This document shows, piece after piece, positions 43,274 through 58,655 of a stretch of DNA of 64,000 bases. The position numbers and the translations under genes are program-made. Under the pieces are notes generated by a model that ran no database searches, was not told the DNA's origin, and was given only the letters and a program-made list of their open reading frames with translations. Position 1 is the first letter of the stretch; every line of letters begins with the position of its first letter. Where the stretch lies: contig OZ244960.1 of NCBI GenBank assembly GCA_965222605.1, positions 1,920,001-1,984,000 of the forward strand. Reading direction: 5' to 3'. The stretch is from Candidatus Latescibacterota bacterium (GTDB taxonomy: Bacteria; Latescibacterota; UBA2968).

Positions 43274-44747
43274 GTGATTACTCCCAACGCTAAATCAGTT
43301 GGGCTTCTTGGCGATCAAACCGCCTGACTTTGTAATCCCAAAGTCAAAATGTTTATCGCAGCATTGTGGTCTCTGTCTGTGGTATAGCCACACTTTTTGC
43401 AACAATGCACACGCTGAGAGAGTGTTTTCTTCTCACGGTATCCGCAAGCAGAGCACGCTTGAGATGTGTATGCAGGGTTTACGGCCTTGAATCCAATACC
43501 AGCTTCTTCCGCTTTGTATTCGAGACAATGCCGAAACAGGGACCACGCTACGTCTCCAATCGACTTGGCCAATCGCCTGTTCTTTTGCATACTTTGTGGT
43601 TCAAGTTTCTCGACTGCTACGAACCCATGACGATTGACTACTCTTCTTGCTTGCTGGTGGGCAAAGTTGTGGCGTCTGTTTCTGATGCGCTCGTGAATTC
43701 TCGCAACAACTTTGCGCGCCTTCTCACGTTTTTTGGGCAACGCTTTCTTAACCTTGTCCCACTTGCGTTGCGCTCTCTTGAGTGCCTTTTCTTCCTGCCT
43801 GAAAAACCGAGGGTTAGACACACGCTTACCAGCACTGGTAACAGCAAATGCGTTCAGCCCAACATCAATCCCAACAGCGGTGTCAGGATGATTGGGAGAC
43901 CGCACAGGGTCGCCAATATCACAACTGATAGACGCATACCATTTGCCTGTTGCTGTCCGCGTGATGGTGCAGGTCTTAGGGACACCTTCAAGGCAACGAT
44001 GCTGAACAATGCGTATGCAACCAATTTTGCCCAACCGCAAGCCCTTGTCGTCCAATCGGCATCCGTTGGAGAATTGCGGATAGGTGAGCGAATCGTAGCG
44101 GTTCATACCCTTATATCGTGGAAAACCCGCTTTCTCGCCCGTCTTTGCCTTTGATTTGAGACGGCGAAAGAAGCCATCAAACGCTTTGTCAACACGCACA
44201 GCCACTTGTTGCAAGACCTGACTATATATTTGCTTAAGCGCAGGACGTTGTTGTTTCATCAAGGGGAGTATTTTAATCTGATCGTAGCAAGACAAAGACT
44301 TTTGCTCGCTCTTCCACGCCTGAACACGGGCACATACCAACTGGTTGTAGAGTAGTCGGCATTCTTCAATATGCCCTTGCAGTATCGCAGCTTGCTTTTT
44401 GGTTAGACGCAAGCGATATTTGAAATTTCTGACCATTGCAATCACCAAAGAGAAAGCCCGTCATGGTTGTCACCTCAAAAGCATAGATTTTAAGACCAAA
44501 ACGGGTCAAGTCCAAGGTGACAGTTACAAGATACATTTTTTGGGGTGCGAAGGGCAAGTGGAATTAGCGGATGAATCTTGTTGATGCACCGCCCAAATCG
44601 CCGCTTTGCGATGTGCCCCAACGCTAAAGCACTACCCCATAAGCATGTCCCTGCGAAAGCAGGGATTCGTAAGCCCTTGCAAAACAACGCTCGCTAACTT
44701 GCGTCTGCTTCCCAGCGCTAAAGCCGATGGGTTGTACGGGCTATCTG
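43274..44747 (-). mobile_element. IS200/IS605-family tnpB-only element 2
   Basis: Left end CAGATAGCCCGTA after TTAT; right end ...GGGAGTAATCAC; ends homologous to element 1. Confidence 0.85.
43315..44436 (-). CDS. tnpB: RNA-guided endonuclease TnpB
   Basis: GIDVG, VEKL, CSACG..CKKCG, DRDHNAAINI; paralog of 35546-36670. Confidence 0.95.
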   Translation of the reverse strand: MVRNFKYRLRLTKKQAAILQGHIEECRLLYNQLVCARVQAWKSEQKSLSCYDQIKILPLMKQQRPALKQIYSQVLQQVAVRVDKAFDGFFRRLKSKAKTGEKAGFPRYKGMNRYDSLTYPQFSNGCRLDDKGLRLGKIGCIRIVQHRCLEGVPKTCTITRTATGKWYASISCDIGDPVRSPNHPDTAVGIDVGLNAFAVTSAGKRVSNPRFFRQEEKALKRAQRKWDKVKKALPKKREKARKVVARIHERIRNRRHNFAHQQARRVVNRHGFVAVEKLEPQSMQKNRRLAKSIGDVAWSLFRHCLEYKAEEAGIGFKAVNPAYTSQACSACGYREKKTLSQRVHCCKKCGYTTDRDHNAAINILTLGLQSQAV

Positions 44748-44899
44748 ATAATATTTGCTTCAATCCGATGTCCAGCGCTTTCGAACGCGAAAGGATGTCT
44801 CTTGCGAAACGGACTTACGCGCTGTGCGGATGGCTTTGGCTTATGTCTTTTTGCATATGGAATGGCGTCAAAGAAACGGCTTGTCGCGTCCCTTGTGCT

Positions 44900-44939
44900 G
44901 TCATTGCGGCATGGTTTTAGTCGCAATCCAGTTGGTTTT
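44900..44939 (-). repeat. GTCATTGCGGC-type palindromic repeat
   Basis: GTCATTGCGGCATGGTTTTAGTCGCAATCCAGTTGGTTTT, reverse orientation relative to the 15728 copy. Confidence 0.75.
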
Positions 44940-45009
44940 TCCCGACTTTCCATTATCTTACAAAACTCATAGATAGTGACTTAATCCGCCATCAAGATGG
45001 AGTTGATCA

Positions 45010-47610
45010 TTGAAACGTCCACCAATGCAAGAACAAACAAGTGACCGGCCCGCCTGGGGAAAGTACGAGTCGCCGCATTGCTACCATCGCCTTGAACATC
45101 ATTGTGCCGATGTTGCCGCCTGCTTCGAGATACTTCTTCAGGAACCGATCTTGCGCCGCCGATTTGAACGGGTATTGGGAAACATCAGCCTCTGTGCTGT
45201 AACAGAAGCGCGATTGACAGCCATAGCATTCCTGCACGATTTCGGAAAGTTGAATGCCGGCTTTCAGTTCAAGGTTCGCGACCGAAGCGAACTACCGACT
45301 GCCCCGCCACAGAGCAAAGGTCATGTTGTAGAAGCTTTCTTCTGCTGCCAGCAAGACCACATGTGCAAAGCACTCGGGTTCTACGACATGGCGGCCTGGG
45401 GTGAGGGCTTAGAACCATTGCTAATAGCCGCACTCGCCCATCACGGGCGTCCAGCGCAGCCTCCCCATAGCGGGTCTGGCCCTCCGGAAATCTGGTCGCC
45501 TTTCGCTGGCTACGATCCAGCCAAAGCCGCTTCACTCCTCCACAATCGTATTCGCGAGTGGTTTCCGGCCGCGTTTAATCAAGGACCACCGTTGCCCGAT
45601 TCACCTACGCTTGTACATCTCTTCGCTGGGGTTGTTGCCCTTGCGGATCAAGTTGGCTCCGCGGAGGAGTTTTTTTCTTTTGAACCCGATCCCGACCCGG
45701 AATACATCATTCGTGCGCGCAAAAAGGCACGAGAGGTATTGGGAGTACGAGGTCTGCGCCGCGCCAGTCATCAAGCGTGTCCTGAGCAGGCTAATTTCCA
45801 GACCATGTTCGGTCACTCGTCGCCTCGCCCCTTGCAACAAGCTGTTGCTGACGCGCCACTCGACCGTCCGCTTTTGATCCTGGAAAGCGAGACAGGTTCC
45901 GGCAAAACAGAGGCGGCGGTGATGCGGTTCGCTGCATTGTGGCGGGCGGAGATCGTTGATGGGCTTTACTTCGCAGTGCCAACCCGCGCGGCGGCAAAGC
46001 AACTGCATGGTCGCATCTCAAAGGCGTTAGAAAGCCTGTTGCCATGGACCCCAACAGTGCTTGCTGTACCTGGCTACTATCGTGCCGACGAGGTGGAAGG
46101 GCAATATATCGGCAACTTCGAGGTCTTCTGGGAGGACGAACCTGATGAGGAGGAGCGTGCCGCCCGTTGGTCGGCGGAGAGCACGCGCCATTACCTGAGT
46201 TCCACAGCGGCGGTAGGCACCGTAGATCAGGCACTCCTCGGTGCTCTCAAGGTCAAATGGGCACACCTTCGCGGCGCGTCCCTTGCCCGTAGCCTGCTCG
46301 TGGTGGATGAAGTGCATGCCAGCGATTCTTACATGACGCGGCTGCTACACACCCTTCTGCGTGGACATCTCGATCTCGGAGGTCATGCACTCCTCATGTC
46401 TGCAACTCTGGGGGCAACTGCCCGCACAACATTTACTGGATCTTCAATTCGCGATCTACCTGCACCCGATGAAGCGGAGCAAGCCCCGTATCCCGCACTC
46501 ACATTGGCAGGCAATGGCACACCTGATATCTGCCCAATCGGACACACCGAGCAAAGTAAGGCAGTCTCCATGCGGGTAGAGGCATGGATGTCTGACCCGG
46601 CACAGATCGCCCGATTTGCATACTCACAAGCACGCGAAGGTGCCAAGGTACTGATCATTCGCAACACCGTTGCCACAGCGCAGGAGGTCTTCGAAAATCT
46701 ACTTGACCAAGATGGCGGTGAACTGGCCCTGACGGTGGAGGGTATCCCGACGCTACACCATAGCCGATTCGCCGTAGAGGATCGCAGACTGCTTGATGAC
46801 GCTGTAGAACTCGTGCTGGGAAAAGGTGACAGACCACGCAATGGGCAGGTGGTCATTGGTACTCAAACCCTCGAACAGTCGCTGGATATTGATGCCGATA
46901 TAATGATTTCCGATCTATGCCCCGTGGATGTCCTCCTGCAACGGATCGGACGTCTGCATCGGCACGCAGACACGGTGCGTCCTCGCAGATTCTCCACACC
47001 GAATTGTATTGTACTCACACCTGAGGACGGATTGGAAGTCGGGCTGGGAGGTGACCTCTTGCGTCATGGGCTTGGTATATCCGAGAACGGAGGCATCTAC
47101 CGCAACCTGCTCGCAGTGGAACAGACGCGAAGCCTAATTGTCGATCACGCTGTTTGGCGCATTCCCGACATGAACCGAATGCTGGTGGAACAGGGAACCC
47201 ATCCGGAAGTGCTTCGCGAACGAGCCAATGTGCTCGGCGATACCTGGTTGACCCACGAACAGCAGACCTGGGGGTTAGCGGCTGCAGAAGACCAGGTCGC
47301 TAGACGCCACGAGCTTGATCGACAGGAATTGTTCGATGAGCAGAAATTTCCTGATCTGGATGAAAAGGTACGTACACGGTTGGGAGAGGATGGGCCGCGA
47401 ATCAACCTCGATCAAGCGATATCAGGTCCGTTTGACAAACCTGTGAAAACTTTCAATCTACCAGCCTTCTTTTTCAAACAAATCCCCACGAAAGATGAAA
47501 TTGAACAAGCGCGTGCTGAACAGATAGCTGGTGACTTGACACTGCATGTAGGAACACAGGCGTTTCTATACGACCGGACGGGTATCCGGCCAATGGAGGC
47601 AGGGGAATAG
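45010..47610 (+). CDS. cas3: Type I-E Cas3 HD nuclease-helicase
   Basis: LEHHCADV, LHDFGK, HHG, ETGSGKTE, DEVH, MSAT, QRIGRLHRH. Confidence 0.95.
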   Translation: MKRPPMQEQTSDRPAWGKYESPHCYHRLEHHCADVAACFEILLQEPILRRRFERVLGNISLCAVTEARLTAIAFLHDFGKLNAGFQFKVRDRSELPTAPPQSKGHVVEAFFCCQQDHMCKALGFYDMAAWGEGLEPLLIAALAHHGRPAQPPHSGSGPPEIWSPFAGYDPAKAASLLHNRIREWFPAAFNQGPPLPDSPTLVHLFAGVVALADQVGSAEEFFSFEPDPDPEYIIRARKKAREVLGVRGLRRASHQACPEQANFQTMFGHSSPRPLQQAVADAPLDRPLLILESETGSGKTEAAVMRFAALWRAEIVDGLYFAVPTRAAAKQLHGRISKALESLLPWTPTVLAVPGYYRADEVEGQYIGNFEVFWEDEPDEEERAARWSAESTRHYLSSTAAVGTVDQALLGALKVKWAHLRGASLARSLLVVDEVHASDSYMTRLLHTLLRGHLDLGGHALLMSATLGATARTTFTGSSIRDLPAPDEAEQAPYPALTLAGNGTPDICPIGHTEQSKAVSMRVEAWMSDPAQIARFAYSQAREGAKVLIIRNTVATAQEVFENLLDQDGGELALTVEGIPTLHHSRFAVEDRRLLDDAVELVLGKGDRPRNGQVVIGTQTLEQSLDIDADIMISDLCPVDVLLQRIGRLHRHADTVRPRRFSTPNCIVLTPEDGLEVGLGGDLLRHGLGISENGGIYRNLLAVEQTRSLIVDHAVWRIPDMNRMLVEQGTHPEVLRERANVLGDTWLTHEQQTWGLAAAEDQVARRHELDRQELFDEQKFPDLDEKVRTRLGEDGPRINLDQAISGPFDKPVKTFNLPAFFFKQIPTKDEIEQARAEQIAGDLTLHVGTQAFLYDRTGIRPMEAGE

Positions 47611-47661
47611 TATATGGCAAGCCTCGGGCTTAACCTGAGTGAATCAAAAAAATTTATTTTT

Positions 47662-47694
47662 AACTTGCGCGGCGCAGCACAGATTATGTATATT
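47662..47694 (+). promoter_or_regulatory. Predicted cascade-operon promoter containing PAM and crRNA-like target
   Basis: AT-rich tract, AAC, -35 TTGCGC, N18, -10 TATATT; 47665-47680 matches the mini-array spacer. Confidence 0.75.
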
Positions 47695-47723
47695 TGACCT
47701 TCCATCACCCAAGGAGGCCAAAT

Positions 47724-47975
47724 ATGAAACGACAGGGATCCCTCGTTATTGAACGAGAACGCATTACTGAACGCATCAGTTTCCAAATAGAGATTTGGGA
47801 AGACGATCACAGATTTCATCCCGCAGAAAAACAGCCAAACTCAGGATCCGCATCCTCCGACTCATCGGAGATAGTCCATTGCGAGGCGCAGCACCAGCAC
47901 AAGGACTCTCGTTTCCCCGCCCAAGCGGGGTTTCTACCACTCCCGAGCAGAAGTCATAACAGGCGAACACCATGA
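47724..47975 (+). CDS. Putative 83-aa leader ORF spanning the mini-array, coupled to cas8e
   Basis: Strong AAGGAGG SD 6 nt before ATG; its TGA overlaps the cas8e ATG (ATGA). Confidence 0.5.
   Translation: MKRQGSLVIERERITERISFQIEIWEDDHRFHPAEKQPNSGSASSDSSEIVHCEAQHQHKDSRFPAQAGFLPLPSRSHNRRTP
47850..47937 (+). ncRNA. CRISPR-like regulatory RNA (CreR/CreA-like mini-array: pseudo-repeat, spacer, pseudo-repeat)
   Basis: Pseudo-repeats 47850-47877 and 47910-47937 keep the 6-bp stem and 4-nt loop through compensatory changes; spacer matches the upstream promoter. Confidence 0.85.
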
Positions 47976-49552
47976 ACCTTCTCACTGACAGATTGATTCG
48001 CACTCGCTTAACCGATGGCGAAATCGAAATACAATCTTTACCAGAAGTGTACGCGACGATGGCACAGGACCGCGTAGCGGCCTTTCCCGCACTTCGCCCC
48101 CACCAACGCCATGCATGGCATGCATTTTTAGCGCAACTGGCAACAATCGCCAGGCACCGGACAGACACAAGTCTGCCGCCGCAGACATCGGCAGACTGGC
48201 AAGCTCTGCTCCGCGGCCTGACATCAGAGTATGCTAACGATGAACCCTGGTGCCTAATTGTGGAGGATCCGACGAAGCCCGCGTTCATGCAGTGTCCGTC
48301 ACCCAATGGCCTCAACGACTATCGCGGTCGTGTTACGACACCCGACGATCTCGATGTCTTGGTCACGTCCAAGAACCACGATGTAAAACGGACCATTGCA
48401 CACGGGGGAGCACCTGAAGACTGGATATTCGCGTTGATTGACCTTCAGACCATGGCTGGCTTTCTCGGTTCTGGGAATTACGGCATCGCCCGTATGAACG
48501 GCGGTTTCTCGGCACGTCCTTGCCTGGGCCTGATTCCCTCAAAGGGTTTTGCCGGCGCGCATCTATTCCACGATGTCCAGCGCATGATAGCGGGACGCGA
48601 TCAATTGTTGGAGGACTATGGCAATTACTACGCTCCAGCAGATGGACTGGCCTTGTTGTGGATAGAACCATGGAGCGGCACCGAGCAAGCAGACCTGCGA
48701 ATCCTTGACCCCCACTTTATCGAAATCTGTCGGCGCGTGCGGCTGCGATCAGAAGGCGACCAACTCATCGCGTGGACAGCATCTTCAAAGCGTGCGCGGA
48801 TCAATGCAAAGGCTGCAAAGGGAAATCTCGGCGATTTCTGGACGCCCGTAGAGAATAAAGAGAGCAAAGCCCTGTCTTTGTCTTCAGTGGGATTTCCTTA
48901 CAAACGGCTGGTCGAATTACTCTTTAACAATGAGACATATAAAAAGCCTCCGTCAATGCGGGTGAATAGTGGCACCGGCGACCAGTGGCAATTGGTTGCC
49001 CGTGGTATCGCCGGCGGTCAGGGCAAAACAGAAGGCTATCACGAACGAACCGACATTGCCTTTGCTAACAAAACAGCTTCAGGTTTTTTTAGGACCGCTG
49101 AAAGTAATAAACTGGCCGAAATCGCGCAGGCACAGATAGAAGAGATAACCGAAGTGACAGGTGCGCTGCGATTCGGCATTGCCATCGCAGCGAGTGGAGG
49201 AAAAGAGCCAGGCGACCTCACCAAGTCTGACCGAGCGCACGCCACATCCTTTGCAAAACGACTCGAAGTGGTGGCGGATACAGAGTTCTTCGCGATGCTG
49301 CAGGATCGTTTCCTTGCCGAGGATGATGCCACGGCTGCACGCCATCGCGCCAAATTCGCACGTCTTTTAATTAATTCAGCGCGAACACTACTCAACGAGG
49401 CAATAGACAGCGTACCGTGCGCGTCCATTCGCCGTCACCGGGCGAGAGCGAGAGCGACCAGTGCTTTTGAGGGCAAAGTGCGCGGAGAGAAGAGTATCTT
49501 CAGTGATCAGCCCGAGATATTCAATACCAAGGAGACAAATAATGTCGGTTAA
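47972..49552 (+). CDS. cas8e: Type I-E large subunit Cas8e (Cse1/CasA)
   Basis: MNLLTD..I, LRPHQRHAWHAFLAQL, PAFMQ; position in the operon. Confidence 0.85.
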   Translation: MNLLTDRLIRTRLTDGEIEIQSLPEVYATMAQDRVAAFPALRPHQRHAWHAFLAQLATIARHRTDTSLPPQTSADWQALLRGLTSEYANDEPWCLIVEDPTKPAFMQCPSPNGLNDYRGRVTTPDDLDVLVTSKNHDVKRTIAHGGAPEDWIFALIDLQTMAGFLGSGNYGIARMNGGFSARPCLGLIPSKGFAGAHLFHDVQRMIAGRDQLLEDYGNYYAPADGLALLWIEPWSGTEQADLRILDPHFIEICRRVRLRSEGDQLIAWTASSKRARINAKAAKGNLGDFWTPVENKESKALSLSSVGFPYKRLVELLFNNETYKKPPSMRVNSGTGDQWQLVARGIAGGQGKTEGYHERTDIAFANKTASGFFRTAESNKLAEIAQAQIEEITEVTGALRFGIAIAASGGKEPGDLTKSDRAHATSFAKRLEVVADTEFFAMLQDRFLAEDDATAARHRAKFARLLINSARTLLNEAIDSVPCASIRRHRARARATSAFEGKVRGEKSIFSDQPEIFNTKETNNVG

Positions 49553-50102
49553 AGAACCTCTAACTGCACCGAGAAAGCAAGCTGAGACTCACAGCCTCGG
49601 TCAAGTGGTTTCCGGACTGGCTGGGGAGATTGCCAGACTTACACCGGGGCCTGCCGCAGCACTCCGGCGTGGACCCTTATCAGGAGCTGGCGCGGCGGCC
49701 TTCTGGCAACTTATGGCTATCCATCAACCAGGAACCAATGACGAGGCGGGCTGGGCAGCACTCATTCAGGGAATCGCGATTCTAACACCCAAAGGGACAG
49801 ACCCAGACCCCGAAAAAAAATCGGCGCACGAATACCGTTTCCCCATGGGTTCCGTCCTTTCCAAAGCCGAATTCTCAGAACTGCGGCTCGCTCGTCTCTT
49901 GAACGCCCCAAAAGAAATGCGGCGAGACCTCGTTATACGCATGTGTCGGCGGCTGTCTAGAACCGAGTACAATCGTTTCAATCTCGAAACGCTGGCGCGG
50001 TTTATTCTCTTTGCCGACGACGAAACAGATCGCCGAATTGCCCGCGATTACTACCGCACTGATGCGGAATCAAAACCCGCATCCACTGAATCTACAGATT
50101 AG
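49542..50102 (+). CDS. cse2: Type I-E small subunit Cas11 (Cse2/CasB)
   Basis: PGPAAALRR, SELRLARLL, IARDYY; AAGGAG RBS. Confidence 0.85.
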   Translation: MSVKEPLTAPRKQAETHSLGQVVSGLAGEIARLTPGPAAALRRGPLSGAGAAAFWQLMAIHQPGTNDEAGWAALIQGIAILTPKGTDPDPEKKSAHEYRFPMGSVLSKAEFSELRLARLLNAPKEMRRDLVIRMCRRLSRTEYNRFNLETLARFILFADDETDRRIARDYYRTDAESKPASTESTD

Positions 50103-50111
50103 GAGATTTTC

Positions 50112-51245
50112 ATGCCCAACGTTCGTTTTCTTCAGATCCACAGCCTTCATGGCTACCCCGCCGCACTTCTCAACCGCGATGACTCGGGTCTTGCCAAACG
50201 CATGACCTATGGCGGCACGACCAGGACACGCATTTCCTCCCAATGTCTCAAGCGACACTGGCGCGTCTCGGACGATATCTACGCTTTAAGTGGCATAGAT
50301 GGCGCAACCGCCGCGACCCGTTCGCGCGAGATCGTGACTCGGCGAGTCATTGAACCGCTCATAGAAGCGGGCCATGATGAGGAGATCATCAAAGTAATTG
50401 GAGAGGCATTTCAACTCTCAGTTTACGGCGATAAAGGTGGTACCAGGCAGGGGCGTCAGCCGCTTCTACTCGGCGAACCGGAAATCGAGTATCTCGCCCG
50501 CGAAGCCCAAAAAATTGCGGATACCCATGGCAGCGACCCACAAGCAGCAGAAGAGACCGCTAAGGATTGGCGCAAGTCCGCCAATGCCAACATGAAAACC
50601 TTGCGCGAAAATTGTTCACTGCCAGGAGGCTTGGTTGCCGCCATGTTTGGACGTATGGTGACTTCAGATGTAGAAGCGAACATCGATGCCGCTGTTCATG
50701 TAGCCCATGCTTTTACCGTCCACGAGGAAGAGAGCGAAAGCGACTACTTCACTGTTGTCGATGATCTTCACCGTATCGAAGACGATGCTGGCGCGGATCA
50801 TATCGGCGAGTCCGAGTTGACCTCCGGTTTGTTCTATGGCTACGTCGTACTCGATCGCGAAATGCTGCTTTGCAATCTCGGTGGCGATACCGAAATGGCT
50901 GATGAGGTTACAAGACGCCTCGTACATCTGATCGCCATGGTGTCCCCAGGAGCGAAATTGGGATCTACCGCTCCTTACGACTATGCGAGTTGGCTACTCA
51001 TCGAAGCCGGTGAATATCAGCCGCGCAGCCTGGCCGAGGCGTTTCGCAAACCCTGCAAGGCACTGGTGGATGAAGCCGAAGCCGCAGTGAACACTCATAT
51101 CCAGAAAATAGACGCCGCTTATGGTACAAACGAGGCACGCCGTTCAATGAGCTTGACGGGCACACCGATTTCAGGAACGGAACTTTTGCCCCTCTCCGAT
51201 CTCGCGGCATGGGCAGGCTCCGCTATTCAGGAAGGAGTTGCGTGA
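50112..51245 (+). CDS. cas7: Type I-E Cas7 (Cse4/CasC)
   Basis: LNRDDSG, RISSQCLKR, MFGRM, VAHAFT, DYFTVVDDL. Confidence 0.95.
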   Translation: MPNVRFLQIHSLHGYPAALLNRDDSGLAKRMTYGGTTRTRISSQCLKRHWRVSDDIYALSGIDGATAATRSREIVTRRVIEPLIEAGHDEEIIKVIGEAFQLSVYGDKGGTRQGRQPLLLGEPEIEYLAREAQKIADTHGSDPQAAEETAKDWRKSANANMKTLRENCSLPGGLVAAMFGRMVTSDVEANIDAAVHVAHAFTVHEEESESDYFTVVDDLHRIEDDAGADHIGESELTSGLFYGYVVLDREMLLCNLGGDTEMADEVTRRLVHLIAMVSPGAKLGSTAPYDYASWLLIEAGEYQPRSLAEAFRKPCKALVDEAEAAVNTHIQKIDAAYGTNEARRSMSLTGTPISGTELLPLSDLAAWAGSAIQEGVA

Positions 51246-51955
51246 TGCGCTGGTTGCAAATCCGGTTCCATGCACCACTCGCATCCTTTGGTGGCGAAAC
51301 TATTGACGTTCATGGTGTGATCCGTGATTTTCCCGCCCAATCCATGTTGACGGGGCTGTTCGCCAACGCTCTTGGCTGGACCCGCGCTATGCGGGTAGAA
51401 CACCAGACACTCCAGGACAGGATCATCTATGGCATGCTGCATGAGGAGGAACCAATGCTCGGTCGTATAACGGACTATCAGACCGCGCAACTTTCCAAGA
51501 ACGACAAATCATGGACCACACGAGGAGTGCCCGCAGACCGGGCTGGTGGTGCCGGCAGTTATAGAGGAGCGCACCAGCGTTGGCGTGACTACCATGCGGA
51601 CTTGCGTATGCTGGGCGTCGTTCGGCTCAATTCTGGCGACGTAGCACCGACCCTTGATGATCTGGCAAACGCGCTGGAGCATCCCGCACGTCCGTTATTT
51701 CTTGGACGCAAGCCTTGTCTGCCCTCTGCCCCGATCTTCAGCGGATGGATGGAGGCACCGGATATGCACACAGCACTTCGCAACATAGCACCTGAGAGTG
51801 GGAGACTTTTTCGAGCCTTGTGGCCTGCGTCAGAAGGGCCGGAAGGTTCGGATAGAACGACATTCGTAACCGACGAGCGCAACTGGATAACGGGACTGCA
51901 TGGAGGTGCGCGTCGCATTTGCGAAGGCAGGATTTCCGGTAGGGAGGCTGAGTAA
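51245..51955 (+). CDS. cas5: Type I-E Cas5 (CasD)
   Basis: APLASFG, FP..SMLTGLFANALG, DYQT, LFLGRKPCLPS. Confidence 0.93.
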   Translation: MRWLQIRFHAPLASFGGETIDVHGVIRDFPAQSMLTGLFANALGWTRAMRVEHQTLQDRIIYGMLHEEEPMLGRITDYQTAQLSKNDKSWTTRGVPADRAGGAGSYRGAHQRWRDYHADLRMLGVVRLNSGDVAPTLDDLANALEHPARPLFLGRKPCLPSAPIFSGWMEAPDMHTALRNIAPESGRLFRALWPASEGPEGSDRTTFVTDERNWITGLHGGARRICEGRISGREAE

Positions 51956-52743
51956 TGACCACTTATATGATCCACGTCCCATTGGACATGCGTGCCTTTA
52001 ATCGGTGGGCGGGACAACGCGGACTCATCCGAAGAGGCGTGTTTGACGAGGGCTATGCACTACACATTTTGTTGACAGGTATGTTTGGCCCAGGCGTTTT
52101 GCGACCATTCCGTCTATTTGCTTCGGAGCGCCGCCGCAATGCTTCTCTCTACGCATACACCGATGCGGACCAAGCCGCACTGCAATCTATGGCAAATCTG
52201 GTTGCGACGCCCGATTGCCTGGATGCGCTTGATCCTAAAAAAATACGGTCAAAGGAAATGCATACTGAATTTACGGCTGGTCAGCGTTTAGGGTTTGACC
52301 TGCGGGTTCGTCCGGTACGGCGGCTCAGAACCGAAATACACGATCAAAAATCGGGTAAGACGATTGGGAAAGGCGCGGAGATTGACGCATTCCTCGTCCA
52401 TGTGTTTCGCCATTTTCCCGATGGTGGCGCAGATGAGGCTGTCAATGCACGATCGGCAGGACAGACGCGAGAGAAAATCTATACAGAATGGCTCGCCGAG
52501 CGTTTTGATGGCGTCGCAGAAATCGAGCAGGAGGCGTGCCGCGTTGCCGCATTCAAGCGCAGTCGCTCTCTACGCGGTGACGGATTTTCTCCCGAGGGAC
52601 CGGATGTGACCTTTCACGGCGTTTTGACAGTTGCAAATCCGGATGAATTTGCTGTCCGCATAAGAAATGGGATCGGGCGGCATAAGGCTTATGGTTATGG
52701 CATGCTGCTTCTGCGCCCACCCGGGAAAACGGTAGCATATTAG
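51955..52743 (+). CDS. cas6e: Type I-E Cas6 (Cse3/CasE)
   Basis: C-terminal GIGRHKAYGYGMLLL glycine-rich loop. Confidence 0.93.
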   Translation: MTTYMIHVPLDMRAFNRWAGQRGLIRRGVFDEGYALHILLTGMFGPGVLRPFRLFASERRRNASLYAYTDADQAALQSMANLVATPDCLDALDPKKIRSKEMHTEFTAGQRLGFDLRVRPVRRLRTEIHDQKSGKTIGKGAEIDAFLVHVFRHFPDGGADEAVNARSAGQTREKIYTEWLAERFDGVAEIEQEACRVAAFKRSRSLRGDGFSPEGPDVTFHGVLTVANPDEFAVRIRNGIGRHKAYGYGMLLLRPPGKTVAY

Positions 52744-52777
52744 TAAAAAAAAAACAGATAATATTGTGGGGTTTACT

Positions 52778-53671
52778 ATGCTGATGAGACGCCTTGGTTT
52801 GGAAACCGCCCGAATACCTCATGCAGATCGGGCTGGCTTGCTCTGGTTGTCTCGCGGTGCCTTAACCGCCCGCGATGGCACCCTAACATTCGAACGCAAT
52901 ACAGAACGGGCTGACAACGATCCACTCGATCCGGGGTATTATGCGATACCATTGCAGGGCGTCTCCATGATCCTGCTTGGTCCCGGATCCACAGTCAGCC
53001 ATGACGCGCTACGCCTCCTCGCTCGACAAGGTACGGCTCTGGCTGCGGTGGGCGAGGATGGCGTGCGTCACTACACCGCGCCGCCACTGATTGCTAACCG
53101 ATCCGGCCTTGCACGGCGTCAGGTGCGGGCGTGGGCCGATCCCGATACGCGACTCAATATCGCCCGACTCATGTATGCCTGGCGCTTTGGCACTGTTCTG
53201 CCGCATAGCGATATTAAGGTACTGCGCGGTATTGAAGGGGCGAGGATGAAGAAAAGCTATAAACTGATCGCTACGCAGGTTGGGATCAAGTGGCACGGCA
53301 GACGCTACGACCGGTCACAGCCTACCGCGGGAGACCTGCCCAATCAGGCATTGAATCATGTGGTGAGTGCTGTGGAGGCTGCCGCTGCCATTGCAGTATC
53401 AGCCACATCAACTATCCCACAACTTGGTTTTATCCACGAGGATCCCGGTCAATCATTTGTACTGGACATTGCCGATCTCTATCGAACCACGGTCACCATC
53501 CCCGCTGCTTTCCGCGCTGCAAAGCAGGCAGAGTCCCCGCCCTATGGGAACATAGAACGTCTTGCCAGACGGGAGGCTGGTCGCGTCCTTGCCAGCGAAA
53601 AGATCATACCACACATGATTGAGCGCATCAAGAAGATGTTTGAAAACTCAGACGATCAGGAGGATCCATAG
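52778..53671 (+). CDS. cas1: Type I-E Cas1
   Basis: LLGPGSTVSHDA, LRGIEGARMK, NQALN, LGFIH, LDIADLY. Confidence 0.95.
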   Translation: MLMRRLGLETARIPHADRAGLLWLSRGALTARDGTLTFERNTERADNDPLDPGYYAIPLQGVSMILLGPGSTVSHDALRLLARQGTALAAVGEDGVRHYTAPPLIANRSGLARRQVRAWADPDTRLNIARLMYAWRFGTVLPHSDIKVLRGIEGARMKKSYKLIATQVGIKWHGRRYDRSQPTAGDLPNQALNHVVSAVEAAAAIAVSATSTIPQLGFIHEDPGQSFVLDIADLYRTTVTIPAAFRAAKQAESPPYGNIERLARREAGRVLASEKIIPHMIERIKKMFENSDDQEDP

Positions 53672-53964
53672 TGCCCATGACTGTTGTGGTCACGCGCGAT
53701 GTCGAATCGCGTTACCGTGGCTTTCTGGCCTCAGCGATGTTGGAGGTCGCGCCCGGTGTGTACGTTTCTCCCGACCTTTCCCATGGCGTGCGCGAGCGCA
53801 TTTGGGCCGTAATCAGCACCTGGTACGATGTTTTGAACCGCGGTGCCATAGTCCTGATGTGGCGTGATAGCACCGCATCCGGCGGCCTCGCCCTCCGTCA
53901 TCTCGGCGATCCGCCCAAGGAGATTCGCGATGCGGATGGCGTTTTATTGGTGAAAAGACTGTAA
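53671..53964 (+). CDS. cas2: Type I-E Cas2
   Basis: RYRGFL..MLEVAPGVYV, VRERIW, DADGVLL. Confidence 0.93.
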   Translation: MPMTVVVTRDVESRYRGFLASAMLEVAPGVYVSPDLSHGVRERIWAVISTWYDVLNRGAIVLMWRDSTASGGLALRHLGDPPKEIRDADGVLLVKRL

Positions 53965-54022
53965 AGATAGTCAGAAGATTCCCCGTCTATTTACGGGGTA
54001 AGAAGAAGTATACGTTTGTACA

Positions 54023-57000
54023 GGTTTCCCCGTGTGTACGGGGATAGACCCAGGTCGCCATTCACGAACAGCTGGATTTCCGAGGTTTCCCCGTGTGTAC
54101 GGGGATAGACCCTCGTGATGTCGTGCGAGGTGTTCGCGGTGGTGGGTTTCCCCGTGTGTACGGGGATAGACCCAAGCCCTATTTTGGGACAAAAAAGCCG
54201 GCTTAGGTTTCCCCGTGTGTACGGGGATAGACCATACCGCGACTGGGCAATGCGCGAGGTTATGGAGGTTTCCCCGTGTGTACGGGGATAGACCTTGTGG
54301 AGCTTTGACCTGGACGGCCTCAGTGTGGGTTTCCCCGTGTGTACGGGGATAGACCATACCGCGACTGGGCAATGCGCGAGGTTATGGAGGTTTCCCCGTG
54401 TGTACGGGGATAGACCCCGCCTGAACGCCGCCGCTTTTGTGACGCCGTCGGTTTCCCCGTGTGTACGGGGATAGACCTCCGTGTGTTCCAGTAGCGCGGG
54501 CGATCATATCGGTTTCCCCGTGTGTACGGGGATAGACCGTGGGCAGACATTAGCATGATCAGCTCGCGGCTGGTTTCCCCGTGTGTACGGGGATAGACCC
54601 GTTGTAGCTCCTACTGGGTTTCCGCCACCGTAGGTTTCCCCGTGTGTACGGGGATAGACCCGTGTGCGTCGAGCGGAAACAGGCGATGTCCGCGGTTTCC
54701 CCGTGTGTACGGGGATAGACCGCGGAATATAGCGGTTTCGCTTTTTGGATATGCGGTTTCCCCGTGTGTACGGGGATAGACCCCAAGTCATAAACGTTGC
54801 AAACATCTCCACAGGGGTTTCCCCGTGTGTACGGGGATAGACCCCTCGCGCATTGCGCGTTTAATTCAGGGGGCTTGGTTTCCCCGTGTGTACGGGGATA
54901 GACCCTTTTCATACGCCGCCGCAAAGTCGATGACGTTGGTTTCCCCGTGTGTACGGGGATAGACCCTCATCGAGGACCGATTCAAAGGCGATCAGCGGGG
55001 TTTCCCCGTGTGTACGGGGATAGACCACACACTATTGACGCGCTGGCCTTGCTGTGCCAGGTTTCCCCGTGTGTACGGGGATAGACCCTCGGCGGGAGCA
55101 GGCAGGGGCAACGCCAGGTGGGTTTCCCCGTGTGTACGGGGATAGACCTTGTAAAGCGGAAGCGGTAGAAGAATACCTTGAGGTTTCCCCGTGTGTACGG
55201 GGATAGACCTTTGGAAGTTGTAATAAGGCAAAAATGGGATATGGTTTCCCCGTGTGTACGGGGATAGACCCCTTCATATTCCGCAAAGGCGGCGTTATCG
55301 GTGGGTTTCCCCGTGTGTACGGGGATAGACCTTCTTTAGATTGTCGCTCGCCCGCGGATAAGAGGGTTTCCCCGTGTGTACGGGGATAGACCTTTGACAG
55401 AGCTTTCTTGGCTCGATCTTTATGAGGTTTCCCCGTGTGTACGGGGATAGACCCCGGCCCGCCAAAAGCATCTCGGCCTCCGCCTCGGTTTCCCCGTGTG
55501 TACGGGGATAGACCGGTTAAAGAGAGCTATAGATGCACATTCTTGGTGGTTTCCCCGTGTGTACGGGGATAGACCCAAGGGGATGTGGGTCATAAAAAAT
55601 CAGGGAAAGGTTTCCCCGTGTGTACGGGGATAGACCCTTGCTTTTCCGTTTTGGCGGCGGCGTTAGATAGGTTTCCCCGTGTGTACGGGGATAGACCATA
55701 GCCGGGCTTTCACCTTCAAAGCGGCTATCGGGTTTCCCCGTGTGTACGGGGATAGACCCTGACCAAGCAGGCGAAGGTCAAGTCATCCATAGGTTTCCCC
55801 GTGTGTACGGGGATAGACCCATCTTGTTTATCTATCACCGCCCCCAAAATGGGGTTTCCCCGTGTGTACGGGGATAGACCATAGCCGGGCTTTCACCTTC
55901 AAAGCGGCTATCGGGTTTCCCCGTGTGTACGGGGATAGACCCTGACCAAGCAGGCGAAGGTCAAGTCATCCATAGGTTTCCCCGTGTGTACGGGGATAGA
56001 CCCATCTTGTTTATCTATCACCGCCCCCAAAATGGGGTTTCCCCGTGTGTACGGGGATAGACCCCGTTAATGCAGGTTGCGAGTATTTTCCGGACGGGTT
56101 TCCCCGTGTGTACGGGGATAGACCTCGACTTTTTAGATCGGGGGAGGGCGTGTTTTAGGTTTCCCCGTGTGTACGGGGATAGACCCTTCAAATACAGTTT
56201 GAGCAGATCAGCGACCTGGGTTTCCCCGTGTGTACGGGGATAGACCTTGATCCAACTTGCTCTTTTCCTTTGCAAGTGGGGTTTCCCCGTGTGTACGGGG
56301 ATAGACCTTGAGCGTTGATGTCTATAAATGCCAGGTCGCCGGTTTCCCCGTGTGTACGGGGATAGACCGTAGGCCAATCAAGGTCACGGTAGCCATTTAA
56401 AGGTTTCCCCGTGTGTACGGGGATAGACCTTCGATTTCTTGCTTGGTGATTCCGCCGACCATGGTTTCCCCGTGTGTACGGGGATAGACCCGGCCTGTCT
56501 TAGGCCACCAAGCCGAGGTAAACGGTTTCCCCGTGTGTACGGGGATAGACCCTACAAATATTACAATGGGGGGAATGATGTGTCGGTTTCCCCGTGTGTA
56601 CGGGGATAGACCCCATATGTATAGCGAGCTCGGGATGTATAGGGAGGTTTCCCCGTGTGTACGGGGATAGACCCGACTGGGTGCTGGTAACGGACCCGAT
56701 GAAGCAGGTTTCCCCGTGTGTACGGGGATAGACCCACGCGATACTGGCTGTGAGCAAAAAGTGCCACGGTTTCCCCGTGTGTACGGGGATAGACCTTCGA
56801 GGATTTTATGGATATAGCAGCATGGGCAGGTTTCCCCGTGTGTACGGGGATAGACCTGACGCTCTTAACATCGTCGGGGAGCAGAGAGTGGTTTCCCCGT
56901 GTGTACGGGGATAGACCGTTTCCCGCCGACAAAGGGACCCAATCTTAGCTGGTTTCCCCGTGTGTACGGGGATAGACCTGGGCTGCCGAACTTGGTTGCT

Positions 57001-58076
57001 CGTCTGGTACGGGTTTCCCCGTGTGTACGGGGATAGACCCGACCAGCTACGCACCACTGTTGACTTGACCATGGTTTCCCCGTGTGTACGGGGATAGACC
57101 CTCTCGTTGGGCTGTAGCAATATCCCTCCTTTTGGTTTCCCCGTGTGTACGGGGATAGACCCTATCAGCAGTACAGCACCCATCATGGCGCACCGGTTTC
57201 CCCGTGTGTACGGGGATAGACCCCGTTCTGGCATGTACGGAGAGTATTTCTGTTTGGTTTCCCCGTGTGTACGGGGATAGACCATAGTCTTCGTTATAGA
57301 CGCCCTTGGAAAAGAAGGTTTCCCCGTGTGTACGGGGATAGACCTTTCTCTTTCCATATCCAGAACCGATATTGTAAGGTTTCCCCGTGTGTACGGGGAT
57401 AGACCTTTGTGAGCATCATAGGAAGCCATAGCAAGATTGGTTTCCCCGTGTGTACGGGGATAGACCTTTCTGACTCCTCATTAGCACGTATATTAAGCGG
57501 GTTTCCCCGTGTGTACGGGGATAGACCTCCGGATATGACGGACGGCGACGCCTACGTCATGGTTTCCCCGTGTGTACGGGGATAGACCTCCGGATATGAC
57601 GGACGGCGACGCCTACGTCATGGTTTCCCCGTGTGTACGGGGATAGACCTTTTACCGGCTTTGATGAGTCTTGCGAGATAGGGGTTTCCCCGTGTGTACG
57701 GGGATAGACCCCCTTTAAACATGGCGCTGCTGGCATCGATGATGGTTTCCCCGTGTGTACGGGGATAGACCCGGGCTTTGGACCGTTTCAGCGGTTTAAA
57801 TTGCGGTTTCCCCGTGTGTACGGGGATAGACCTCCACCCCTGGATCCGCTGCAAATTCGCGGAAGGGTTTCCCCGTGTGTACGGGGATAGACCCGATATA
57901 CGCTTGACTTTGGACAAGCGCACGTGGGTTTCCCCGTGTGTACGGGGATAGACCCAGAAGGGAAAATCTAAACCCCATCGCGTAAGGGGTTTCCCCGTGT
58001 GTACGGGGATAGACCCCTAGGTGTGTTTATGCTCAATAGTTTGATCATGGTTTCCCTGTGCATGCGGGGATAGACA
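54023..58076 (+). CRISPR. Type I-E CRISPR array: 67 repeats (GGTTTCCCCGTGTGTACGGGGATAGACC), 66 spacers of 33 nt
   Basis: Exact 61-bp periodicity from 54023 to 58049; degenerate terminal repeat GGTTTCCCTGTGCATGCGGGGATAGACA at the distal end. Confidence 0.99.
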
Positions 58077-58180
58077 AAAAAAGTCACGTTGCCATTTGTA
58101 TTTGCAAGGTTCTCAAGCCATACGTCACCGCACGCAGATAAAGAAGGTCGTTTATGGTAGGTCACAAGTATTCTAAAAAT

Positions 58181-58216
58181 AAACCCCGCTACAAGATTAT
58201 CTCGCAGCGGGGTTTT
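58181..58216. terminator. Probable bidirectional terminator after the array
   Basis: AAACCCCGCT...AGCGGGGTTTT. Confidence 0.65.
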
Positions 58217-58235
58217 CGTAAAATATGAAAACTTA

Positions 58236-58655
58236 TCACTCGTTCGTCTCTCGGCGCATTTCAAAGATACGAACGACAATGTACATACCGAGCGAAACAA
58301 TGAAGAAAACGAGCAACATCCACGCGATAGATTGCAGGGATTCGATAATCGTGCGATAGATCTCGAGCACCCAGCGTTCGGTAGTCAGTTCAAAAGGAGG
58401 AATATCGCGGGATTCACCTTTGGGACTGAAATGCTCTTGCGGCAAAATATAACGCTCCAGCGAGCGGACACGCACACCGCCAGAGATACCGACCACATAG
58501 ATCGCGAACTTCATATAGCGCACCCATGCACCTGCTATCGCATCGTCAATAAGCCGGTGAAGAATACTGTTAATCGCACTGCTAAACGCACGCACTGTGA
58601 TAAAAGACACGAGAGCGGCGACTACGAGGGTAATGATGAGAAGCGTGAAGAACAT
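58236..58655 (-). CDS. Hypothetical membrane protein
   Basis: GGAGG RBS; three hydrophobic segments. Confidence 0.75.
   Translation of the reverse strand: MFFTLLIITLVVAALVSFITVRAFSSAINSILHRLIDDAIAGAWVRYMKFAIYVVGISGGVRVRSLERYILPQEHFSPKGESRDIPPFELTTERWVLEIYRTIIESLQSIAWMLLVFFIVSLGMYIVVRIFEMRRETNE

Follow-up and report, generated by a model that had tools for sequence, protein, structure and literature searches.

A CreR-like mini-CRISPR between cas3 and cas8e probably steers Cascade to its own operon's promoter region in a type I-E locus of Latescibacterota

Introduction

In Salmonella, the type I-E RNA CreR represses the casA promoter together with Escherichia coli Cascade, and the repression is relieved by an excess of CRISPR RNA (crRNA) or by AcrIE8 (Liu et al., bioRxiv 10.1101/2023.03.10.532045). 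Some 19% of the type I-E loci of bacteria have been reported to carry mini-arrays, for the most part in the interval from cas3 to cas8, and the mini-array spacers partly match the cas8 promoter beside a protospacer-adjacent motif (PAM) in types I-E and I-F1 (Shmakov et al., bioRxiv 10.1101/2023.03.03.530964, PMC10120712). Here we describe an element with these features in a type I-E system of Candidatus Latescibacterota bacterium, located in a 64-kb stretch of contig OZ244960.1 (assembly GCA_965222605.1, positions 1,920,001 to 1,984,000, forward strand), which we call the window and to which all coordinates refer. Two degenerate repeat-like units, psiR1 and psiR2, flank a guide in the spacer between cas3 and cas8e, and the guide partly matches a site further upstream in the same spacer.

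Related arrangements can carry a cargo. In the type I-F locus of Acinetobacter baylyi, CrePA comprises an open reading frame (ORF) for a protein toxin ~120 bp downstream from the site that CreA targets, in the cas3–csy1 spacer (bioRxiv 10.1101/2024.01.05.574328), while CreT RNAs combine a strong ribosome-binding site (RBS) and a start codon with tandem minor codons that sequester a rare tRNA (PMC8501985). In the auto-repression of Cas9 by tracr-L, a non-canonical guide of limited complementarity makes the effector a repressor of its own promoter. Viral Racr and Cracr RNAs are units that resemble repeats, lie outside arrays and are loaded into Cas effectors (PMC10651486; bioRxiv 10.1101/2024.10.29.618823), and Cracr RNAs target the same cas promoters (bioRxiv 10.1101/2024.10.29.618823).

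Results

Anatomy of the mini-array and its target

The spacer between cas3 and cas8e is 361 nucleotides (nt) long and contains both the mini-array and its target, on the forward strand. As shown by alignment with the 28-nt repeat of the array in the same locus (GGTTTCCCCGTGTGTACGGGGATAGACC), psiR1 (47850–47877, GCATCCTCCGACTCATCGGAGATAGTCC) is identical to it at 17 of 28 positions and psiR2 (47910–47937) at 16 of 28; the two units are separated by 32 nt, which gives a start-to-start distance of 60 nt. All three are predicted to fold at positions 6–21 into a 6-bp stem with a 4-nt loop, the stems being CTCCGA/TCGGAG in psiR1 (47855–47870), CCCCGC/GCGGGG in psiR2 (47915–47930) and CCCCGT/ACGGGG in the array repeat, so that psiR1 has two compensatory pairs relative to the array stem and psiR2 has one. 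Following the hairpin, psiR1 carries the handle ATAGTCC where the repeat has ATAGACC. The 5' part of psiR2 reads CGTTT against GGTTT in the repeat, and its handle is lost (TTTCTAC).

With the cut position extrapolated from that of E. coli Cas6e, a putative cut after 47870 would leave an 8-nt 5' handle at 47871–47878 and a guide at 47879–47909, and the predicted mature RNA would span 47871–47930 (60 nt). Positions 1–16 of this guide (47879–47894) match the forward strand at 47665–47680 in 15 of 16 positions, guide position 6 being the sole mismatch, and a PAM-like AAC (47662–47664) stands directly 5' of this target. The target lies on the upstream side of psiR1 at a distance of 185 nt, and a full 32-nt footprint would reach 47696.

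An earlier reading of the sequence alone (hereafter the sequence-only reading) had proposed this element. Its coordinates for both units, the 17/28 identity, the 32-nt gap, the stems with their three compensatory pairs and the ATAGTCC handle all proved exact in the sequence and in the predicted fold, as did the 15/16 match with its position-6 mismatch and the preceding AAC. It had also expected standard array finders to miss the element, in keeping with which the output of Tandem Repeats Finder does not include the mini-array. An Rfam scan of 44000–58500 returned no family over the mini-array and only a weak, sub-threshold whalefall-1 match inside the array.

The mini-array and its target match are not products of chance. 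Across the 6.3-Mb genome, 28-mers resembling the repeat at 17 or more of 28 positions occur at a rate of 5.3e-5 per sampled position, and those at 16 or more at 3.0e-4; from these rates, two such units 60 nt apart in a 361-nt spacer are expected about 2e-5 times (hand arithmetic). In 300 shuffles of the guide, the target score that we observed was never attained. When positions 6 and 12 of the guide pattern are left free (N), perfect matches in the genome occur only at the target and at the spacer itself. No further repeat-like units rise above background elsewhere in the genome (at most 19/28 to the repeat and 20/28 to psiR1 or psiR2).

Relation to CreR and to other crRNA-like regulators

By its sequence, the window element belongs to the family of CreR and regulatory mini-arrays: a repeat-like pair lies outside the array in a cas locus, psiR1 and psiR2 retain the characteristic parts, and a partial, seed-proximal match lies in the same locus. 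The closest likeness is to CreR of Salmonella enterica, which as described is a degenerate psiR1–psiS–psiR2 element in the spacer before casA/cas8e, with a psiR1 that retains 5'-handle bases and a psiR2 that retains the 3'-handle part (bioRxiv 10.1101/2023.03.10.532045). There, too, the match is seed-proximal: it covers some 15 nt and falls on a site with an adjoining PAM ahead of the first Cascade gene. Auto-repression is proposed to respond to crRNA load and anti-CRISPRs, a behaviour that the window element may share. The window element differs from CreR in its PAM-like AAC (A-R-Y in its clade) in place of AAG, in its repeat family and host lineage, in the position of its target 185 nt upstream of psiR1 and in its location inside an 83-codon ORF that abuts cas8e.

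Like the mini-arrays of Shmakov et al., the element consists of two repeat-like units in a long cas3–cas8 spacer, with a spacer that partly matches a site beside a PAM-like motif and mismatches at sixth positions; at 17/28 and 16/28, its units are too degenerate for a simple similarity search. In contrast to the E. coli-type example given there, which is antisense to cas3 with its target downstream, the window mini-array runs in the same direction as cas3 and cas8e, with its target upstream; the transcript that the guide would repress therefore includes the guide itself. In CreTA (type I-B, Haloarcula hispanica) and CrePA, a partially complementary crRNA-like RNA makes the effector a repressor of a promoter inside the cas locus, as we propose for the window, and a small cargo gene follows just past the target, where the window has its ORF. 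The window ORF differs from that cargo: it has neither KilAC nor another known domain, it has no tandem rare codons and, besides overlapping the mini-array, it is joined in register to the start region of cas8e. tracr-L resembles the element, in the action proposed here, in using a non-canonical guide of limited complementarity to make the effector a repressor of its own promoter, and differs in belonging to class 2, in being a different RNA and in having no mini-array. Racr and Cracr RNAs serve counter-defence in phages and prophages, whereas the window element is fixed in the host cas operon and conserved along with it. This kind of element has already been published for type I-E systems, and the window element is by its sequence a further member; loci of its clade might already be present in the supplementary mini-array lists of the two 2023 preprints.

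Guides and targets covary across related loci

We collected 80 loci from species-representative genomes with a Cas8e profile and could derive a 28-nt array repeat for 67 of them; the window was then added, as was, by hand, the locus of its closest relative (L003). In many loci, the top two repeat-like 28-mers of the 700 nt preceding cas8e showed a recurrent geometry, one lying 46–62 nt upstream of the start codon and the other 49 or 60–61 nt further. After exclusion of one candidate with a guide shorter than 17 nt, 27 mini-arrays were scored, and 25 of them have a same-strand target 84–414 nt upstream that matches at 13 or more of 15 positions (p <= 0.007 each against 300 shuffles); the remaining two, L011 and L043, have no such target. 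By record title, these loci derive from metagenome-assembled Latescibacterota, Acidobacteriota, Gemmatimonadota and Gammaproteobacteria, and record titles and run labels place the clade mainly among uncultured marine and sponge-associated genomes.

The agreement between guide and target follows a clear positional pattern. Guide and target are identical in 19–25 of the 25 loci at positions 1–5, 7–11, 13–17 and 19–20, whereas at positions 6, 12 and 18 the two agree in only 5, 6 and 5 of the 25, close to random expectation; past approximately position 22 identity is random throughout. The pattern is unchanged when one locus is kept for each of the 14 guide clusters. It does not stem from an invariant sequence: at position 16, for example, the guides carry A in 10 loci, G in 10, C in 3 and T in 2, and guide equals target in all 25. 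Guides match their own targets at a mean of 15.5 of 17 positions compared with 8.3 of 17 for the targets of other loci, and the target of another locus fits better in only two of the 25 loci, both with close kin. In type I Cascade, every sixth guide base is flipped out and unpaired, and mismatches of mini-array spacers fall at sixth positions (bioRxiv 10.1101/2023.03.03.530964). Selection therefore acts on exactly those positions that Cascade pairs. The sequence-only reading had named spacer–promoter covariation in orthologous loci as a check and had explained the position-6 mismatch as a base that Cascade leaves unpaired; the covariation is present in 25 of 27 loci, and position 6 is unconstrained across the relatives.

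The repeat-like units are conserved in a manner consistent with their parts in a crRNA-like molecule. Throughout the 25 loci, psiR1 keeps the hairpin and the handle, and psiR2 keeps the 5' part and the hairpin and not the handle. The psiR2 stem CCCCGC/GCGGGG occurs in all 17 loci tallied (of 25), and in the 25-sequence alignment its stem columns are invariant and its handle part varies; in psiR1 the same alignment has invariant G19, G21, A22, T23 and C28. Among the 17 loci tallied, the psiR1 stem is mostly CTCCGA/TCGGAG, with variants that retain pairing (CTCCGG/CCGGAG, CCCCG/CGGGG, CCCCGC/GCGGGG and CCCCA/TGGGG). The mini-arrays fall into two classes of start-to-start distance, 49 nt (L015, L022, L004, L023, L040, L042, L047 and L054) and 60–61 nt (L017, L021, L030, L048 and others), with pairing confined in both to the first ~20 nt; both distances occur among close kin, L047 and L054 having 49 nt and L048 having 61 nt.

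Among 60 related genomes, DNA similarity to the region was found in one, that of L003, which belongs to the same genus and is 81% identical over the region. Here psiR1 is kept in full and psiR2 except for its last base, between flanks of ~80% identity. Guide position 14 and target position 14 have both changed from G to A, the target differs at position 6, and AAC is replaced by AAT. A scan of metagenomes found no close relative of the window (best Cas8e identity 65%). A strict pattern search in 80 metagenome loci added five mini-arrays with targets matching at 11–13 of 15 positions, which were left out of the counts above.

PAM-like motif and promoter at the target

The motifs that precede the 25 targets are AAC (9), AAT (7), AGT (6), AAG (1), AGC (1) and ATT (1), and thus have the form A-R-Y in 23 cases. 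In E. coli, the 29th base of an array unit stems from the last base of the PAM. In the window array this base, the first of each spacer, is C in 35, T in 20, A in 6 and G in 5 of the 66 units; C or T in 55 of 66 fits a PAM ending in a pyrimidine and not the G of the canonical AAG. This support for A-R-Y, the apparent PAM of the system, is indirect.

Two candidate promoters can be drawn at the target. The sequence-only reading had placed the −35 box within the target, as TTGCGC-N18-TATATT (47665–47694). This box was not confirmed: TTGCGC agrees with TTGACA at only three of six positions and a promoter scan made no call there; the −10-like TATATT is conserved in the relative. The other candidate, CTGAGT-N18-TTTAAC (47635–47664), ends in the PAM-like motif itself and is homologous to the L003 promoter TTGACT-N18-TTTAAT, which scores 10/12 and whose final AAT is the PAM there. 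In the interval from −70 to +40 around the target, 15 of the 25 loci have a sigma70-like promoter with a score of 9/12 or higher, compared with 2 of 250 control windows placed inside cas8e, and in related loci the −10 box mostly ends 1–18 nt ahead of the protospacer. In L003 and in most loci the PAM coincides with the end of the −10 box or follows it closely; by homology, Cascade in the window would cover the transcription start and not the −35 box. A promoter that ends at the PAM is therefore more likely, judging from homology, than a −35 box inside the target; with either promoter, Cascade would occupy the core promoter or the start site. Variants among strains, from assembled contigs of public runs that cover the target side only, fall at 47664 (C>T), 47680 and 47681.

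An ORF overlaps the mini-array

The sequence-only reading did not include an ORF of 83 codons (47724–47975, +) that begins 59 nt after the target, runs through both pseudo-repeats with the mini-array as its codons 43–72, and ends in a stop codon that overlaps the cas8e start (ATGA). A Shine–Dalgarno sequence, AAGGAGG (47711–47717), stands 6 nt ahead of its ATG at 47724. A hairpin predicted from an inverted repeat at 47689–47726 (−10.9 kcal/mol, z = −2.65) would pair this RBS and the start codon with the TATATT region, and can form only if transcription starts upstream of 47689.

The ORF has 13 homologue clusters of 61–86 aa, 12 of which measure 80–86 aa, and close homologues have two C-terminal tails that differ by a frameshift. 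It occupies the same place in 12 loci including the window, with a loose motif of a basic N terminus, R-T-V-I-x-T-S and an acidic strand. In three Gemmatimonadota-type loci, a 10-codon core changes mostly at third positions (read by eye), while over the whole N-terminal part synonymous to non-synonymous changes number 7:11, 5:15, 5:18 and 7:18 and are near neutral. The product has no Pfam or PADLOC match and a low atlas recognition score, and AlphaFold2 predicts a beta-hairpin at residues 2–26 (pLDDT, its per-residue confidence score, ~80) with the remainder disordered, including the part encoded by the mini-array. Over the mini-array, 21 of 25 loci have a frame without stops at least until 2 nt before the cas8e start; since it is also open in loci that have no upstream start codon, conservation of the RNA sequence accounts for part of this openness. 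Translation of the ORF, into a leader peptide or a small protein, is probable.

A CreT-like reading of the ORF, in which rare codons would follow the start, was rejected: an RBS and an ATG are present, but codons 2–12 contain no tandem minor codons. CGA, at codons 3 and 11, is used 8.8 times per thousand, and the rarest codons 3.8–5.5 times. Two minus-strand ORFs (47412–47819 and 47776–48315) were set aside as spurious, having no significant family and spanning sites where the relative shows indels (1, 5 and 4 nt).

A tRNA-like element occupies the same slot in sibling loci

Twelve further loci have a strong hairpin together with a tRNA-like element between the target and psiR1 (L004:4550-4620, L017:6702-6772, L018:6701-6772, L023:6717-6790 and L012:6597-6667, with degenerate forms at about 6753-6845 in L015, L021, L022, L029, L030, L039 and L078). 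ARAGORN identifies the element as tRNA-Ala(UGC) in four loci and as tRNA-Ala(AGC) in another, and the Rfam tRNA model scores 59.7 bits in L017 and nothing at E <= 1 in L021. A cloverleaf is common to all 12 copies, with compensatory change in 5 of 19 pairs. The third acceptor pair is C-G and the anticodon loop is enlarged in 7 of the 12 copies; alanyl-tRNA synthetase needs G-U as the third acceptor pair. This element could be a processing signal or a CreT-like cargo. A tRNA search of the window was negative, and a literature search for the combination of a tRNA-like element with a mini-array returned nothing relevant.

The surrounding type I-E locus

The type I-E system in the window is complete, and every cas gene has Pfam support. 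Upstream of the mini-array lies cas3 (45010–47610, +; 866 aa; Cas3_HD, Cas3-like_C_2 and DEAD domains), and downstream follow cas8e (47972–49552, +; CRISPR_Cse1; 3457 homologues, including about 30 clusters at 84–91% identity) and then cse2, cas7, cas5, cas6e, cas1 and cas2 (49461–53964, +), among which cas6e (51955–52743) is intact by its Pfam match. The array (54023–58015, +) contains 66 copies of the 28-nt repeat, all identical, and 65 spacers with a uniform length of 33 nt, and shares no spacer with the array of the closest relative. In a BLAST search of the 65 window spacers and those of the relative against the own genome, array spacer 60 matched the own chromosome at 31 of 33 positions (G000:C1:5634971-5635003, outside the window) next to a preceding CTT; this is a single self-match, and its flank says nothing on A-R-Y.

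At the cas3 stop codon lies a short hairpin (AAGCC-TCG-GGCTT, 47609–47630), behind which comes a tract rich in A and T. This hairpin was not among the terminators called by the scan, so transcription may read through from cas3 into the mini-array. About 560 nt upstream of cas3 lies a gene of the TnpB/IS605 OrfB type (43315–44448, −; Cas12f1-like TNB, OrfB_IS605 and HTH domains). Four public runs that include the region consist of assembled contigs, which show neither strand, ends nor transcription, and DNA may be present in such libraries. Within them, a 7.8-kb contig from an RNA library of a relative bridges cas3, the spacer and cas8e, and two 79-nt contigs from a size-fractionated RNA library cover 47798–47876.

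Discussion

We consider it likely that the cas3–cas8e spacer of this Latescibacterota locus holds a CreR-type, crRNA-like regulatory mini-CRISPR that steers Cascade to the promoter region of the operon encoding it, where Cascade would bind without cutting. Carrying this reading are the anatomy of the mini-array, its conservation, the guide–target covariation with its 6-nt periodicity, the PAM-like motif and the promoter adjacency in relatives. The core of the sequence-only reading, a crRNA-like guide with partial seed-proximal pairing at the own-operon promoter region, thereby gains support from covariation in the relatives.

In the mechanism that we envisage, transcription of the region would run in the direction of the cas genes, and Cas6e would cut after each hairpin to release an RNA of ~60 nt, in which the 8-nt 5' handle precedes a guide of 31 nt and the hairpin of psiR2. 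Cascade loaded with this RNA would bind 47665–47680, after the AAC, through the 16 seed-proximal positions. Because pairing ends at position 16, no full R-loop would form and Cas3 would presumably stay unlicensed. Cascade would then occupy the core promoter or the start site of a transcript comprising the small ORF, the mini-array and cas8e to cas2, so that the operon would be auto-repressed, with relief whenever Cascade is inhibited or titrated by array crRNAs. Repression without cleavage is suggested by the truncated complementarity (16 nt in the window and up to ~22 nt in relatives) together with the published CreR experiments, and experiments on other type I-E CreR RNAs suggest that Cas6e processes the RNA and that anti-CRISPRs or crRNA competition would lift the repression.

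Several observations weigh against this reading. AAC and AAT differ from AAG, the canonical type I-E PAM, and we infer rather than observe their validity as PAMs. At the window's target, the consensus promoter scan called no promoter, and the window copy of the promoter ending at the PAM-like motif scores only 7/12 (hand count). In L003, the target has changed alone at position 9, which is a paired position, leaving a match of 14/16. The screening thresholds were set after the data had been seen, and the related loci are kin. Finally, if the repressed promoter is the only one, the supply of guide RNA would be repressed too.

Could the conserved sequence instead serve coding alone, with the repeat likeness and the 15/16 match incidental to an ordinary small protein gene? 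Its 83 open codons, the AAGGAGG before the ATG, the ATGA overlap with cas8e, the 13 homologue clusters and the predicted N-terminal beta-hairpin would all suit such a gene. Yet hairpins, handle and pairing are kept where no ORF with a start codon covers them, as in the loci with the tRNA-like element, three loci retain the mini-array features with the ORF in another register, the C-terminal tail is read in two frames among close homologues, and the 6-nt periodicity of guide–target identity has no coding explanation; we regard this possibility as extremely improbable. Nearly as hard to sustain is the view that the element is a functionless, decaying remnant of a former CRISPR array or of a leader-proximal repeat. 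Both units are strongly degenerate (17/28 and 16/28), as a remnant would be, but psiR1 and psiR2 are kept in a relative whose flanks are only ~80% identical, and the same architecture and distance to cas8e recur in at least 25 loci from several phyla-level lineages, with compensatory changes in the hairpins and guides that track their targets. Decay is thus very improbable.

A rather unlikely alternative, compatible with auto-repression, is an addiction or anti-anti-CRISPR module resembling CreTA or CrePA, in which the 83-codon ORF (or the tRNA-like RNA in siblings) would harm the cell upon loss or inhibition of Cascade and the mini-array RNA would act as an antitoxin-like guide. In its favour are the strong RBS, the position of the ORF 59 nt after the target and the CrePA precedent in type I-F, where a toxin ORF lies downstream of CreA's target. 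So are the same-place ORF with its loose motif in related loci, the third-position bias in the 10-codon core of three of them and the tRNA-like element that fills the slot in 12 others. On the other side, the ORF matches no toxin family in Pfam or PADLOC and is poorly recognized by the atlas; unlike CreT RNAs it has no tandem rare codons after the start, its substitutions are near neutral overall, and half of it is dictated by the mini-array and predicted to be disordered. Moreover, the ORF shares a transcription unit with cas8e and would be induced whenever Cascade is, which counts against a toxin.

Regulation by the CreR-type guide may also have a second tier, although we hold this extension to be unlikely. 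With the guide lying inside a translated leader, cuts by Cas6e would free the repressor guide and also sever cas8e from the upstream RBS and ORF, so that Cascade would exert feedback on transcription and Cas6e would exert it after transcription. Between the Cascade-controlled promoter and the mini-array there would be room for exchangeable cargo, a small peptide in some lineages and in others a tRNA-like RNA that does not look chargeable, possibly as a CreT- or CreP-like guard.

The finding probably extends CreR-type auto-regulation of type I-E systems to a largely uncultured bacterial clade. The co-change of guide and target everywhere except at each sixth position, in 14 clusters, makes an unusually clean evolutionary demonstration of guides acting through Cascade. 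With its apparent A-R-Y PAM and a conserved CUCCGA/UCGGAG stem in psiR1, the system marks out a candidate variant of type I-E, and new guard modules may be found by way of the overlapping ORF and the tRNA-like cargo. Since array finders miss such elements, the regulation of cas operons is under-annotated.

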